Positions 22,647 to 32,927 of a stretch of DNA of 64,000 nt are shown piece after piece. The DNA comes from an uncultured delta proteobacterium. GTDB taxonomy: Bacteria; Desulfobacterota; Zymogenia; Zymogenales; Zymogenaceae. Both the position numbers and the translations under genes were made by a program. The stretch lies in contig CAVTLK010000001.1 of the NCBI GenBank assembly GCA_963735595.1, positions 928,001 through 992,000 of the forward strand, in the 5' to 3' direction. Below the pieces are notes generated by a model. It did no database searches and had not been told where the DNA came from. It saw only the letters and a program-made list of their open reading frames with translations. Position 1 is the stretch's first letter. The number at the start of each line of letters is the position of its first letter.

Positions 22647-22761
22647 GCCCCGTTACGAGAGGCCGGGGACATACGTAAATCACGAAAGCTCACGTTTCGG
22701 TTGCCAAAAAAGTTGGTCCGTGCTACTATCGGGCAATCCATCCCATTATGCAGGTGTGACC

Positions 22762-23916
22762 ATGGCCCGGAAATACATCGTAAAAGCCGTTAAAATCATT
22801 GTGGTGTTTCTCGTCGTCGCACTTCTGATCCCGGCAGGCTTCGTCGTGGTCTCGGTCGTACGGCCGAACCGTTCGGTCGTCGCCGAAGGGCTCGGCATCG
22901 AGGTATGGCCGGCCGTTGCCGACGGCAGACACAACTCCAACACTGACCTCGTCTTTTTTAAGGATGCGTTCTGGCTCATTCACGCATCGGCCCCGTGGCA
23001 TTTCGCTTCTGAAACGACACGGCTCGTCTTATGGAAGTCGCCGGACGCCAGGACCTGGGAAAGGGTTGCCGAGTTCAGCAACCCCGGCCAGGATATCCGC
23101 GATCCGAAGCTCGTGGCTATCGGGGGCCGCCTCATCCTCTATGCCCTCAAGAATATCTCGTTCGAGGCAGAGCCCTACCTGACGGCGGCCGCCACAAGTG
23201 AGGACGGCGTTACGTGGACCGAATTTGTCGACATGGAACCGGGGGGCTGGCTCTTCTGGAGGCCCGAGACGCCCGACGGCGGCAAGACCTGGTACATGCC
23301 TGCGTATTGGCACGAACACGGCAAGTCGGTGCTCCTGATGTCCACGGACGGCCTTGCGTGGGGAATCAACTCCATCATCTATTCGGGAGACGTAAACGAC
23401 GAGACCGCGGTCATTTTCCTGCCGGACGGAATGATGCTTGCCACGGCGAGGCTGGAAGTGTCCGGGTATTACTTCGGCGATAACCGGGGCAACACGCTGA
23501 TTGCGACGGCGGAGCCCCCCTTTATGACATGGAGCTACCACCACAGCGATGTTACGAGGCTGGACGGCCCGGCGCTTTTTGCCTACAACGGCCGCGTCTA
23601 CGCCGTCGGGCGTTACCAGCCCGGCTGCAAATCCACCCCCTTTGAGACCGGCAGCATCCTGGCAAAGAAGAGGACCTCCCTCTTCCTGGTGGAGGAGGAC
23701 CGTCTCGTGTGGCTCTCCGACCTGCCGAGCGACGGCGACACGTCGTACGCCGGGGTCGTGGTTCGAGGGGACGAGGCCTACGTTTCATATTACACGAGCG
23801 GCATAAAGCGCGACTATCCCTGGATCATCGGGATGCTCCTGGAATCCGATATCATGATGGCGAAGATAGACCTCAAGAAGCTCGAGGCGCTGGCGGTGGA
23901 GCGTCTCGCACAATAG
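22762..23916 (+). CDS. Membrane-anchored sialidase-like/BNR beta-propeller protein (copy 1)
   Basis: N-terminal TM, Asp-box repeats SPDARTW, SEDGVTW and STDGLAW, plus DIRDPK and GDTSY. Confidence 0.75.
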   Translation: MARKYIVKAVKIIVVFLVVALLIPAGFVVVSVVRPNRSVVAEGLGIEVWPAVADGRHNSNTDLVFFKDAFWLIHASAPWHFASETTRLVLWKSPDARTWERVAEFSNPGQDIRDPKLVAIGGRLILYALKNISFEAEPYLTAAATSEDGVTWTEFVDMEPGGWLFWRPETPDGGKTWYMPAYWHEHGKSVLLMSTDGLAWGINSIIYSGDVNDETAVIFLPDGMMLATARLEVSGYYFGDNRGNTLIATAEPPFMTWSYHHSDVTRLDGPALFAYNGRVYAVGRYQPGCKSTPFETGSILAKKRTSLFLVEEDRLVWLSDLPSDGDTSYAGVVVRGDEAYVSYYTSGIKRDYPWIIGMLLESDIMMAKIDLKKLEALAVERLAQ

Positions 23917-23994
23917 CTGATCTTTCAATGAGTGCCACTTGTCAATCGTAGAAGAACGCTAATTGAGTATAACTACTACGCGAGGTATTGTACA

Positions 23995-25149
23995 ATGGGA
24001 CGATATATCGGAAAACTGGCGAAATGGCTGGGGACCGCAGTCCTGGTCGTTGTGTTGGCTATAGGTCTCATCGTTCTCTATTTCTATCTCAGGCCGAACA
24101 AATCCGTCATATCCGAGCAACTGGGCGTCGAGACGTGGCCCGCCGTGGCCGACGGGAGACATAATTCAAACACCGACATGATCTACTGGAAAGACGCCTT
24201 CTGGCTGATCCACGCGTCGGCCCCGTGGCATTTCGCTTCTGAAACGACACGGCTCGTCCTATGGAAGTCGGCGGACGCCAGGACCTGGGAAAAGGTCGCC
24301 GAGTTCCAAAATCCGGGGGAGGATATTCGCGACCCAAAATTCGCGGTGATCGACGGCATCCTCTTCATGTACTCCCTCAAGAACAAGAATTTCCCCGAAG
24401 CCGAGCCTTACTTCACCCTCGTAACATCGAGCCTCGACGGGATTGCCTGGGAGCCGACGGTGAGCGTCAATCAGGACGGCTGGCTCTTCTGGCGGCCGAA
24501 ATCACCCGACGGGGGTAAGACCTGGTACGTTGCCGCTTACTGGCACGAGCACGGTAAATCCATCCTGCTGAAATCGGCGGACGGGCTGACATGGGAAAAG
24601 GTCTCCGATATCTATACCGGAGACTTTAACGACGAGACGGACATAGAATTCCTTGCCGACGGAAGGCTGCTGGCCACGGCACGCCTCGAGGTGGCGGGCT
24701 ATTATTTCGGCGATAACCGGGGCAACACCCTTATCGCGGTGTCGCCCCCGCCCTACACGGAGTGGACCGAAAACCACAGCACCGTTACAAGGCTGGACGG
24801 TCCATACCTTTTTACTTACAACAACCGGGTCTATGCCGTCGGACGTTTTCAACCCGGCTGCAAATCCACCCCCTTTGAGACCGGCAGCATCCTGGCAAAG
24901 AAGCGGACCTCTCTCTTCCTCGTGGAGGAGGACCGTCTCGTGTGGCTCTCCGACCTGCCGAGCGACGGCGACACGTCGTACGCCGGGGTGGTCGTAAGGG
25001 GAGATGAGGCGTATGTGTCGTACTACACGAGCAATATAAAGCACGACTATCCCTGGATCATCGGGATGCTCTCGGAATCCGACATCATGATGGCAAAGAT
25101 AGATCTCAAGAAGCTCGAGGCCCTGGCGGTCGATATGGCGGCACGTTAG
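23995..25149 (+). CDS. Membrane-anchored sialidase-like/BNR beta-propeller protein (copy 2)
   Basis: Tandem paralogue of the same length with the same Asp boxes. Confidence 0.75.
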   Translation: MGRYIGKLAKWLGTAVLVVVLAIGLIVLYFYLRPNKSVISEQLGVETWPAVADGRHNSNTDMIYWKDAFWLIHASAPWHFASETTRLVLWKSADARTWEKVAEFQNPGEDIRDPKFAVIDGILFMYSLKNKNFPEAEPYFTLVTSSLDGIAWEPTVSVNQDGWLFWRPKSPDGGKTWYVAAYWHEHGKSILLKSADGLTWEKVSDIYTGDFNDETDIEFLADGRLLATARLEVAGYYFGDNRGNTLIAVSPPPYTEWTENHSTVTRLDGPYLFTYNNRVYAVGRFQPGCKSTPFETGSILAKKRTSLFLVEEDRLVWLSDLPSDGDTSYAGVVVRGDEAYVSYYTSNIKHDYPWIIGMLSESDIMMAKIDLKKLEALAVDMAAR

Positions 25150-28186: not shown

Positions 28187-28259
28187 ATGAACATTGTTCA
28201 TATACCATCTTGTACATCCACACCACCTGCTTGTCAAGAATATAATGAACCTTGTTCAT
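28187..28259. promoter_or_regulatory. Two palindromic TetR-type operators ATGAAC-N3-GTTCAT
   Basis: ATGAACATTGTTCAT (28187-28201) and ATGAACCTTGTTCAT (28245-28259) between the divergent hydrolase and TetR genes. Confidence 0.7.
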
Positions 28260-28329
28260 ATTTATTCTTGTCTCAGGTCGATTTCCATCGTATAATCTGG
28301 GTTACAGTCTATTGAAGGATTCCGTTCAG

Positions 28330-28971
28330 ATGGATGAAAACGCCCCGCGTGAAAGGAACAAGCCCGGAGCCAGGACCCCCGTTCAGCCGAGGGCTCAGGA
28401 GAAGCGGGACAGGGTTCTCAGCGCCGCTTTTGATCTCTTTTCCAGGCTCGGTTATGATGCGGTGGGGATGAGGGATATTGCCGCGGCGGCCGGCGTCTCA
28501 ATCGGGACCGTATATGCCTATTTTGTCGACAAGAAGAAGACGTTCGTTGAGGTATGCGCGCTCTATTCTGCGGAGCTCGAGCACAGTTTTTTCAACCACA
28601 TTGACGAAGATCTGCCCGACCATCCCGGTGTCGAGGAATTCGTATATGGTGTCATCCGGCGATTTTTTGACATCTTCCGTACCCATATCAATATACACCG
28701 GGACTGTGTGATCATGTCCCTTACGGACGATCAGGTACGGTCGGTCTATACCGCGCTGGAACGGCGCGGTGAAGAAACGGTCGTGGGCGCCTTTACCGAA
28801 CGTTTCGGGGATCGGATCGAGGTGAGGGATGCCGAAGCGGCACGGCTTGTCATCCATAAGACAATCGACGAGATCATCCAGTACCTACTATTCTATGAGG
28901 TTCCGGTAGATCGCGATCGCGTCTTTCGGGAGACGGCGCGTATGATCGCACGCTATCTGGAGAAACGGTGA
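28330..28971 (+). CDS. TetR/AcrR family transcriptional regulator
   Basis: HTH AAFDLFSRLGYDAVGMRDIAAAAGVSIGTVYAYFVDK. Confidence 0.93.
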   Translation: MDENAPRERNKPGARTPVQPRAQEKRDRVLSAAFDLFSRLGYDAVGMRDIAAAAGVSIGTVYAYFVDKKKTFVEVCALYSAELEHSFFNHIDEDLPDHPGVEEFVYGVIRRFFDIFRTHINIHRDCVIMSLTDDQVRSVYTALERRGEETVVGAFTERFGDRIEVRDAEAARLVIHKTIDEIIQYLLFYEVPVDRDRVFRETARMIARYLEKR

Positions 28972-29063
28972 GACACCGGTGAGGGGATTAGGCGGGCTGA
29001 GCAAAAACCGCATCCGCTCCCGGACGTTTCCGGGAGAGCTATACGGGTTGGACGCGTCCCCCA

Positions 29064-29507
29064 TCAAGCAAGCCTGCTGACCAGCAGGACCGCGGAGTTT
29101 GGTCAGAGTCCACAGAATTCGCTCGTCTGCCGTATCGGCAGCGGTGCGCGGTCCCTCGGGATCCGCTCAAACCCGAGCCCCTCGAAAAAAGCCGCCGCAG
29201 TCATGGTCAGGAGATAGAGCTCCCGGACACCCGCCTGCCGCGCGTGGTGGATAAGCCCCCGTACGACGGCCTGGCCGTATCCCCTGTTTCGCTCCCCCTG
29301 CGTCACCGCCAGCGACCGTAAGAGCCCGTATTCCCCGAGAATTTCCACCCCGCCTGCCCCGACGACCGATCCGTCGGCGCGGGCCAGAAAAAGAGAACCC
29401 CGCTTTTCGGGAATATCGGATGAGGGAAGCCCGTTCTCCTCGAGCAGGGCCATGATAAACGGGACATCTCGCTCAGTGGCCGGGGCCAAAACTATTCCAC
29501 GCCTCAC
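29064..29507 (-). CDS. arsN2: ArsN2-like GNAT N-acetyltransferase, predicted selenoprotein (Sec135 in EFCGLUP)
   Basis: LLEENGLP, GLLRSLAV, RNRGYG, LYLLTMTA and FFEGLGF. The TGA at 29105-29103 falls at the conserved Cys of EFxxLCPxSAxx, and the reading continues PNSAVLLVSRLA*. Confidence 0.8.
29073..29088 (-). promoter_or_regulatory. Bacterial SECIS-like hairpin
   Basis: mRNA CCUGCU-GGUC-AGCAGG, starting 15 nt after the UGA. Confidence 0.7.
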
Positions 29508-29727
29508 GTTTTCCCCCTCTCATCGCCGTCTGGTGTCTTTTGTTCGGCTACCGGCGCAGTATAGCACACCCGTCACGGAGGCGCCATTAAAACAAAATCC
29601 CTCATCGGGCAAATATCTCGTATTGACAATTCAGCGGGACTGCGCTATAGTTCGAAAACTTTCGCGTATATCGGCCGGGCCGGGTAAACGGCCTAAAGAA
29701 CTCATTCATTCACGACAAAAGGCGCCA

Positions 29728-30381
29728 ATGGAAAAGAAAAACCATAGAAAAGAAGTTGATCTGTTTCTCTTTGACCTGGATGGAACCCTGTCCGATTCCA
29801 AGAAAGACCTCGTGACGGCGATAAATAAAACCCTGGTTACCATGGGCTTTCCGGAGCTTCCCGAGGAAACCATCATCACGCTTGTCGGCAAGGGGGTGTC
29901 AAAGCTCCTTTCGAACTTTTCCGGCGACCCCTCAACGAAATTCGAAACCTACCGCGTCTACATGGAACAGCTCGATAAACACCTTCTGGACACCACCAAG
30001 CCGTTTCCCGGTGTTTTGGAGACGCTTTCGTCTATCACCAAGAAAAAGGCGGTAGTGACCAATAAGCTCTCGGCAATGGCCGAACGGGTTGTCGTCGGCC
30101 TGGGTATCGCCGATGAGATCGACTTCATCGTCGGGGCCGATACCGCCCAGAGTATGAAGCCGAATCCCGAACCGATTATCTTTGCCCTCAAGCAGTTCGG
30201 GGTTGAGCCGTCCCGCACCGTCATGGTGGGCGACACCATTGATGACATCACGGCCGCAAAGGCGGCGGGTGTTATTCCGTGCGGCGTCACGTACGGGTTT
30301 GGCACCAGACAGGACCTCGCGGACGCCGGGGCCGAGATCATCATCGAGGATATTTCCGAACTGCCCGCCCACTTTCAATAA
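29728..30381 (+). CDS. HAD-superfamily phosphatase (phosphoglycolate phosphatase-like)
   Basis: FDLDGTL, VVTNK, KPNPEP and MVGDTIDD. Confidence 0.9.
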   Translation: MEKKNHRKEVDLFLFDLDGTLSDSKKDLVTAINKTLVTMGFPELPEETIITLVGKGVSKLLSNFSGDPSTKFETYRVYMEQLDKHLLDTTKPFPGVLETLSSITKKKAVVTNKLSAMAERVVVGLGIADEIDFIVGADTAQSMKPNPEPIIFALKQFGVEPSRTVMVGDTIDDITAAKAAGVIPCGVTYGFGTRQDLADAGAEIIIEDISELPAHFQ

Positions 30382-31970: not shown

Positions 31971-32927
31971 ATGAAAACACTCGTGATACTGTGCCTCTTC
32001 CTGATCCTCACGGCGGCCCCGCTCACGGTACTGGCCGCCACCGTCACCATTGTCCATTCGTGCGACAACTATGGTGAGGTCATCCCCTGTGGGTGAGAAG
32101 GCAAACGGCTGGGTGGTTTCGCCCGGCGCGCCACCGTGCTTAACGAGATCAGGAAGAACTATCCCAATGTCCTGGTCGCGGACGCGGGTAACTCCCTGTT
32201 TGCGGCGACACGGTTGTCTTCGATTCACGAAGTGGCCGATAAGGAGGCCGCCCGGTACGTCGCCAAAGGCATGAGCCTGCTCAAATACGACGTCGCCAAC
32301 ATCGGCCCCAACGATCTGGCGGCGGGTATCGATTTCCTCCTCGATATCAGGAAAGACGCCGGCTTCACGATGATCAGCTCAAATATCGTCTCGTCTAAGA
32401 CTGCCGCGCCGATATTCGAGGCGTCGGTAGTCAAGACGATCGGGGGCGTCAGGGTGGGATTTTTCGGGGTCGCCGACGGCAATACCTCCGGCGCGCCCGA
32501 TGGAGAGGGCTTTTTGTTTTTCGACCCCGAGACAACCGGGAGGCGCATGGTCGCCGAACTCTCGAAAAAGACGGACGTTATCGTAGCCCTGCTGGCGATG
32601 GACCGGAAAGATGCGTATGATTTTGCCGCGGCTGTGCCGGGAATCGACCTCATCGTTACGACGGCCCAGCCCCAGCCGATCCCGGTCCCGAAATCGATTG
32701 CCGCAACCTGGATAGCCAGCGGCGACGAAAAGGGGAAACGCCTCGGCAGGACCACGCTTGTCGTCGGCCCGTCTCGCCCCTACAGGGTCACCGGAGAGAT
32801 CATCCCGATCGGCTCCCTGATCAACCGGGATTCCTCGATCAACAAGCTAGAAGACGATTACTATAACTGGCTCAAGGAGTATTCCCCGGAGTCCGCGGGC
32901 GACCCGCCCGATACGATGGATGAGTAG
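31971..32927 (+). CDS. Secreted UshA-like (5'-nucleotidase N-domain) selenoprotein, CGU motif (Sec42)
   Basis: Signal peptide, then HSCDNYGEVIPCG-TGA(32094-32096)-EGKRLGGFARRAT in frame with the 32136-32927 ORF (DAGN, GPND, ISSN). Confidence 0.85.
32108..32127 (+). promoter_or_regulatory. Bacterial SECIS-like hairpin
   Basis: GCUGGGUG-GUUU-CGCCCGGC (8 bp including GU pairs), after an 11-nt spacer from the UGA. Confidence 0.65.

Follow-up and report, generated by a model that had tools for sequence, protein, structure and literature searches.

ArsN2 (NCBIfam NF040501) is a family of GNAT acyltransferases common in arsenic-resistance operons. The sections of PMC6465285 covered here name ArsN2 only as a clade (clade 2 of Nadar et al.) and give no substrate, and neither in these nor in the covered sections of PMC13163355 and PMC12607644 did we find a biochemical function, a substrate or a catalytic residue for it. 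According to the same excerpts, arsN1 is an acetyltransferase for arsinothricin, an arsenic-containing amino acid (PMC6465285), and an arsN of unstated clade needs arsC or arsD to give arsenate resistance (PMC12607644). In NAGS of Neisseria, the glutamate carboxyls are bound by Arg316, Arg425 and Ser427 and, through their backbone, by Leu314 and Cys356, and the helix14–β25 loop is described as a glutamate-binding loop (PMC4490483, in excerpt).

Selenocysteine (Sec) usually replaces a catalytic Cys, according to the sections covered of a 2026 review (PMC13188914). Table 1 of that review, as covered, holds 119 bacterial selenoprotein families and no GNAT, in agreement with the first-pass annotation of the DNA studied here, which did not count GNATs among the classical selenoprotein families; the terms acetyltransferase, GNAT and ArsN are also absent from the covered text. 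The text and four supplements of PMC12013277 gave 0 term matches. A term search of PMC13326102 did not find the family in the covered part of its supplement, so that the rest or the online database could hold it; the genome list in that supplement includes two Zymogenaceae genomes. In PMC13745706, text and supplements, only unrelated acetyltransferases occur in the places shown, and among titles and the starts of abstracts, with subscription papers outside this coverage, we found no ArsN2 or GNAT selenoprotein. The gene described below is very likely a real selenoprotein form of this known family, and a probably uncatalogued one.

An ArsN2 gene with an in-frame TGA

The window is the whole 64,000-nucleotide stretch of DNA analysed here, and positions without a contig label refer to it. 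The features discussed are as follows.

29064..29507, minus strand: arsN2 gene, predicted selenocysteine form, 147 aa plus stop (NF040501 match, structure model)
29103..29105, minus strand: in-frame TGA, predicted Sec135, on the conserved Cys column of ArsN2
29064..29066, minus strand: true stop codon of the read-through frame, TGA here
29112..29114, minus strand: Cys132 codon, the 'C' of C-G-L-U, not conserved
29068..29093, minus strand: SECIS-like hairpin, with a lower stem from 29093, an upper stem in which 29088–29083 pairs with 29078–29073, and a GGUC loop at 29082–29079
29011..29026, minus strand: terminator-like hairpin 3′ of the second TGA, a weak signal (2 such hairpins against 1.0 expected)
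28252..28971, plus strand: convergent TetR-family regulator gene, context without ars link
29692..30381, plus strand: divergent HAD phosphatase gene (ORF called 29452–30381), context without ars link

The ORF starts with a GTG at 29507, preceded by a ribosome-site-like GAGGGGG, and its first stop is TGA 29105–29103, directly after TSEFCGL. Past this TGA the frame continues as P-N-S-A-V-L-L-V-S-R-L-A (PNSAVLLVSRLA) to TGA 29066–29064. The read-through protein scores 146 bits against NF040501, for which the curated cut-off is 125, and the match reaches residue 143, beyond the TGA, which confirms the ArsN2 membership claimed in the first-pass annotation. The C-terminal ArsN2 motif [EQ]FxxL-C-P is present as EFCGL-U-P. 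Eight NCBIfam families match the read-through protein at E up to 0.001, the ArsN1/PAT profile not among them, and the cut-offs for NAGS (ArgA and short NAGS) are missed, at 49.3 versus 154 (PRK07757) and 42.1 versus 180. All databases annotate the short, 134-aa form, the NCBI-sourced entries of its clade (clade A) are cut at the Sec column, and the family name of NF040501 carries no '(seleno)' tag. We consider it very likely that TGA 29105–29103 is read as selenocysteine and yields a full-length ArsN2-family GNAT.

An orthologue is found in 6 of 10 Zymogenaceae genomes, with TGA in five (the host G000, G217, G247, G125 and G275) and TGC in G012; the remaining four gave only weak GNAT matches and no orthologue, and two further loci duplicate sequences of this count. 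The copies of G125 and G275 are frameshifted upstream of the TGA, and in G217, G247 and G275 the true stop is TAG, at the equivalent of 29064..29066 or one codon earlier. A protein search with residues 1–134 only, blind to the tail, gave 85 matches. Of the 27 clusters nearest to the query, one has Cys and the other 26 stop immediately ahead of the Sec column, a TGA having been seen in the DNA of only some of these 26 and presumed for the rest; more distant relatives have Cys at this column in 56 of 58 cases, as expected if the TGA sits on the conserved Cys, as first proposed. In a search of 50%-identity representatives, with a profile that favours full-length proteins, none of the best 150 matches ends before the column. 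Three related-strain contigs, drawn from two public runs, span TGA 29103–29105, and the differences listed for them lie at third positions 29100 and 29112, none of them at the TGA. P0019, P0357 and P0358 have Cys but fall within clade A and retain the SECIS-shaped tail, a probable Sec-to-Cys reversion, an event described as rare in bacteria in the covered sections of PMC13188914.

Selenocysteine machinery and genetic code of the host

The host genome, of 3.63 Mb on 5 contigs and 93% complete, encodes tRNA-Sec (selC), selB as a single frame of 681 aa, selD, which itself contains a TGA, and selA, which lies in two frames at G000:C4:329754-331101 (locus L002) owing to an additional base that G217 lacks. 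Eight of nine family relatives have selA unbroken and above the cut-off, and in G275 it is in pieces. Because the short NAGS gene is also split in this assembly (C5:295637-296090), we read the 1-nt selA insertion as probably an assembly error.

RF2 is above its cut-off, TGA closes more of the long ORFs than any other stop (320 of 873) and tRNA-Sec is the only tRNA with a TCA anticodon in the genome, so TGA is not reassigned. Genome-wide reassignment of TGA to Trp or Gly, for which the W in one cluster and the G in another at the Sec column of a second clade (clade B, see below) could be cited, was rejected on these three grounds, and its probability is negligible.

A de novo scan of the genome for such TGA codons gave 513 candidates, mostly false, from which only recognisable ones were picked by eye. 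These other read-through genes, two formate dehydrogenase-like (Fdh-like) and two UshA-like ones among them, mostly have G-led loops at similar spacing, several of them GGUC or GGUU. Candidates with hairpins lie at C1:658593, C1:684632, C1:603717, C1:839682, C4:339137, C4:492756, C5:364541 and C5:549192 of the host genome; from their motifs, we take two to be Fdh-like, one UXX-star-like, one MerB-like and one UshA-like, and YPYGU, GTAGU and FPGGU proteins among them are unassigned. The window itself holds, 2.5 kb away, a probable second selenoprotein, a UshA-like PCGU protein of 318 aa (31971–32927, plus strand, TGA at 32094) from a known family. It scores 189.6 bits on NF041198, below the full-length cut-off of 275, has a GGUU-loop hairpin, and its standard ORF call begins at 32136. 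At 22720–25149 on the plus strand, the window also carries a tandem pair of paralogues, each about 400 aa long and nearly identical to the other in the C-terminal half, of which the first has no NCBIfam match at 1e-6.

A second clade with TGA at the same column

A metagenome scan for the TGA pattern covered 29 of 64 parts and returned 119 loci; other Sec lineages could be missed, because only loci with T-x-[EQ]-F, P, A and xTG codons fit this pattern. Seven of the loci are ArsN2 genes with TGA, one in clade A and six (two nearly identical) in a second clade, clade B, and the other 112 are not ArsN2. Clade-B tails read GLUPSSAECL or similar, and the clade scores 153.6 bits on NF040501. With clade B as the query, 22 close clusters came up, of which 17 end before the Sec column, the other five reading W, R, C, R or G; codons for these residues are each one base from TGA, the DNA of the five clusters not having been seen. 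One of the R clusters contains 10 members. Among the 96 more distant matches listed in this search, none ends before the column. The read-through form corrects at least 43 database clusters annotated as truncated.

Four of the variant clusters (P0253, P0254, P0256 and P0257, with W, R, R or G) are natural loss-of-Sec variants that retain an open frame and the SECIS-shaped tail, indicating that loss of the thiol or selenol need not close the frame; NCBI names two of them as ArsN2 of Syntrophales. Since both clade-B neighbours and the W and R variants bear Syntrophales names, clade B likely belongs to that group. With the query used, no clade-B genome was found in a phylum sample of 401 genomes, and 17 genomes of the order around its closest Cys relatives gave six matches, none with an internal stop.

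In a tree of 48 rows (9 from clade A, 3 from clade B and 36 Cys proteins chosen from 221), from which the Sec column and tail were left out, clades A and B are each fully supported and are placed among different Cys proteins. An AU test rejects A and B as one clade (p = 0.003). The simplest reading, and a likely one, is two Cys-to-Sec conversions, in Zymogenaceae and in clade B, the alternative being an old Sec with many reversions. Two separate swaps would single out one residue, because Sec normally replaces only a chemically decisive Cys, and the position of Sec therefore points to a likely key residue of a widespread family; an ArsN2-profile search gave 2,901 clusters at 50% identity at E up to 1e-30, not all of which need be ArsN2. 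The mechanism proposed below is put forward as a hypothesis, and with this residue it becomes testable by one mutation.

A SECIS-like hairpin follows the TGA

The first-pass annotation had reported a hairpin CCUGCU-GGUC-AGCAGG 15 nt past the UGA. It is present, with the stem starting at +15 (29088), the loop after a 20-nt spacer, a lower stem that extends it and an energy of −13.2 kcal/mol. The bacterial SECIS model given in the covered sections of PMC13188914 has a loop of 3–9 nt with G in the initial two positions, a stem of 4–16 bp, a spacer of 16–37 nt and an MFE of at most −7.5, and the hairpin lies within all of these limits (GGUC loop, 6-bp upper stem, 20 nt, −13.2). Its folding energy is within chance when compared with shuffles in three stretches (z = −1.51, −0.75 and 0.06) and was dropped as evidence, −1.51 being the best value. 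A GGTC loop on a stem of at least 6 pairs at 16–27 nt is rare, following 18 of 109,980 TGA triplets genome-wide.

Conservation is more informative. TGA with a conserved hairpin recurs in further Zymogenaceae genomes and in metagenome loci, with Cys in other homologues, and the Cys orthologue of G012 has no comparable hairpin. Across 10 distinct sequences, each of seven named stem pairs is intact throughout (70 of 70 cells), against 23–57% paired in slid controls, and five of the seven show two-sided, compensating changes between clades, counts that are inflated by kinship and represent about two clades plus a few changes rather than 10 independent events. The stems read CCUGCU/AGCAGG in clade A, GUGCCU/AGGCAC in clade B and GUGUUU/AAACAC in locus L066, around a nearly fixed GGUC. 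Synonymous differences among five clade-A genes number 4 of 76 in the hairpin, 13 of 23 in codons 1–3 past the TGA and 181 of 363 upstream. Covariation and synonymous constraint together fit a SECIS, and SelB very likely binds the hairpin and inserts Sec135. The two clades offer a clean case of a SECIS likely arising twice within coding sequence.

That the TGA is instead a true stop or a sequencing error, in a truncated or decaying GNAT, is very improbable. The assembly indels in selA and short NAGS, the two frameshifted orthologues, the short form in all databases and the non-significant hairpin energy would suit such a reading, but the same TGA recurs in five genomes and seven metagenome loci, the related-strain contigs from two runs list no difference at it, the frame stays open for 11–12 codons to a variable stop, the last β-strand of the fold would go missing, and the synonymous constraint and covariation fit a SECIS.

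Fold and predicted acceptor pocket

The structure model (pLDDT 93.7) has a helix at 129–134, a loop with residue 135 and a last β-strand at 140–145, which would be absent from the form cut at the TGA. Among solved structures, it most closely matches the NAT domain of N. gonorrhoeae NAGS (2r8v; Foldseek TM 0.83; Z 20.2, rmsd 2.0, 145 aligned), with model residues 1–148 aligned to NAGS chain residues 283–436. The invariant R64-S65 (58 of 58) aligns with NAGS Ala355–Cys356, using a construct numbering offset of 20 that was checked on Cys356 and Arg316. NAGS Arg316 falls in an insertion that is absent from ArsN2 in the profile alignment, and NAGS Arg425 and Ser427 correspond to residues 136–139 (±2), as counted from the C-terminus rather than by residue-level superposition, which puts U-P in the Arg425 region. 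According to the model, Sec135 quite probably lies in the last-helix/last-strand loop, which in Neisseria NAGS carries Arg425 and Ser427. We infer that Sec135 would line the acceptor pocket and that binding of an α-amino acid would be kept. Fusion partners vary among the 31 long proteins scanned (second GNAT, cupin, DinB, methyltransferase, LMWPc, regulators), and no substrate emerges from them.

The proposal that Sec pairs with Cys132 in a thioredoxin-style C-G-L-U motif did not hold. C-G-L-U is in the sequence, yet Cys at −3 from Sec occurs in only 8 of 26 cut-short clade-A clusters (Ser in 15), in 0 of 22 from clade B and in 0 of 58 Cys relatives, and because of this rarity and absence the CxxU reading is not supported and was rejected as a functional motif. 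A thioredoxin fold was not seen; the model and all listed structural matches are GNATs over residues 1–148. Cys at −2 is found in 3 of 26 clade-A clusters. In a comparison with the CxxC of short NAGS, the short-NAGS profile alignment ends at residue 126, before C-G-L-U, and the idea that the two motifs correspond was set aside.

A second Cys of ArsN2, at +6, is present in 45 of 58 relatives and kept in most clade-B members seen, with Leu in its place in clade A. One alternative, close to the chelation or redox role suggested in the first-pass annotation, gives the Sec or Cys a partner in this +6 Cys or in a variable Cys nearby. The site would then bind inorganic As(III), methylarsenite or a metal and serve as carrier, sensor or redox helper, with acetyl transfer either a separate function or one under its control. 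This reading would draw on C-x5-C in the 45 relatives and U-x5-C in clade B, on the dependence of arsenate resistance by an arsN of unstated clade on arsC or arsD (PMC12607644, in excerpt), on one LMWPc (ArsC-type) fusion among the 31 long proteins scanned, and on the three Cys in the corresponding segment of the short-NAGS paralogue. We regard it as unlikely, given that clade A has no conserved second Cys (Leu at +6, and the sparse Cys at −3 and −2 noted above), that there is no thioredoxin fold and that the GNAT core, R64-S65 included, is fully kept.

Arsenic context

This arsN2 copy sits between the HAD phosphatase and TetR genes, and none of the 13 window neighbours scanned around it is an ars gene, so an ars-operon location was not found here. 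The arsM of the host is on another contig, without arsN2 and with HgcC-like and MddA-like genes. Where upstream DNA was seen (L080 and L082), clade B follows an HgcC-like gene, arsM and a C-GCAxxG-C-C gene, and its closest Cys relatives stand directly behind an HgcC-like gene and arsM (L008, L011, L012 and L014). Plasmid-borne Cys-ArsN2 genes lie beside arsH, arsK, acr3 or arsI-family genes in three of the four examined. The ars-operon location is a tendency and not a rule, because it is also absent for the fourth. From the family and from clade B by analogy, an arsenic role for Sec-ArsN2 is plausible. In a separate observation, the 'HgcAB-associated' HgcC AbrB-like gene repeatedly heads arsM operons (L080, L082, L008, L011, L012, L014 and L189); it may be an arsenic or methylation regulator, because no hgcAB was noticed in those loci.

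The near-invariant Cys (56 of 58) in an acceptor-side loop, the usual replacement of a catalytic Cys by Sec (PMC13188914, in excerpt) and the position of clade A outside ars operons could also point to Sec as a catalytic nucleophile, forming an acetyl selenoester in a ping-pong reaction whose substrate need not hold arsenic. The W, R and G variants of clade B, however, keep an open frame, and the linkage to arsM would be left unexplained. Most GNATs, moreover, use direct transfer in a ternary complex, which also speaks against a ping-pong reaction, and we judge this alternative improbable.

Proposed mechanism

We lean towards Sec-ArsN2 being a full-length GNAT whose selenol, in the acceptor pocket, grips an amino acid carrying trivalent arsenic during its acetylation. 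In this scheme, TGA 29105–29103 would be read as Sec135 through SelB and the GGUC-loop hairpin; the selenol of Sec135, lining the acceptor pocket, would grip the amino acid that bears the trivalent arsenic; acetyl-CoA would acetylate the amino group of the gripped arsenical amino acid; and side-chain recognition would have shifted from arginine–carboxylate to thiol/selenol–As(III). More tentatively, and at somewhat less than even chances, the model suggests an acceptor amino acid with a sulfur-loving As(III) side-chain end, the carboxylate-binding arginines being replaced by thiol or selenol. Candidate acceptors would presumably be reduced arsinothricin and hydroxyarsinothricin.

The widest form of the proposal is possible but doubtful: that ArsN2 in general anchors As(III) amino acids through an As–S or As–Se bond where NAGS uses arginines, and that two anaerobic Desulfobacterota lineages independently changed this Cys to Sec, each with a GGUC SECIS at 20-nt spacing made from different stems. 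If it were true, ArsN2 would be the trivalent-state counterpart of ArsN1.

Comparison with known systems

The gene shares with ArsN2 (NF040501) the R-S core, the [EQ]FxxL-C-P tail, the GNAT fold and a score above the curated cut-off; it differs in having Sec for Cys and a SECIS, in the loss of the +6 Cys in clade A and in the location of this copy outside an ars operon. ArsN1/PAT proteins are likewise GNATs of ars operons, but form a different clade and act on pentavalent arsinothricin. The closest solved folds are the NAT domains of NAGS (N. gonorrhoeae 2r8v and M. tuberculosis ArgA 5yge) and, as a family, short NAGS (PRK07757), with which the last-helix/last-strand loop is shared, whereas ArsN2 is without the Arg316 insertion, has U-P in the Arg425 region by numbering and occurs in a host with a separate short NAGS. 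As in the selenoprotein forms of arsenite methyltransferase, arsenate reductase, MerB-like SaoL and HgcA/B (PMC13188914, Table 1), Cys is changed to Sec at a likely metalloid-binding residue in anaerobes, and clade B shares an operon with arsM. The fold differs from that of those arsenic- and mercury-linked selenoproteins, being that of an acyltransferase, and Sec-ArsN2 would thus add an acyltransferase to a selenoproteome mostly of redox enzymes.
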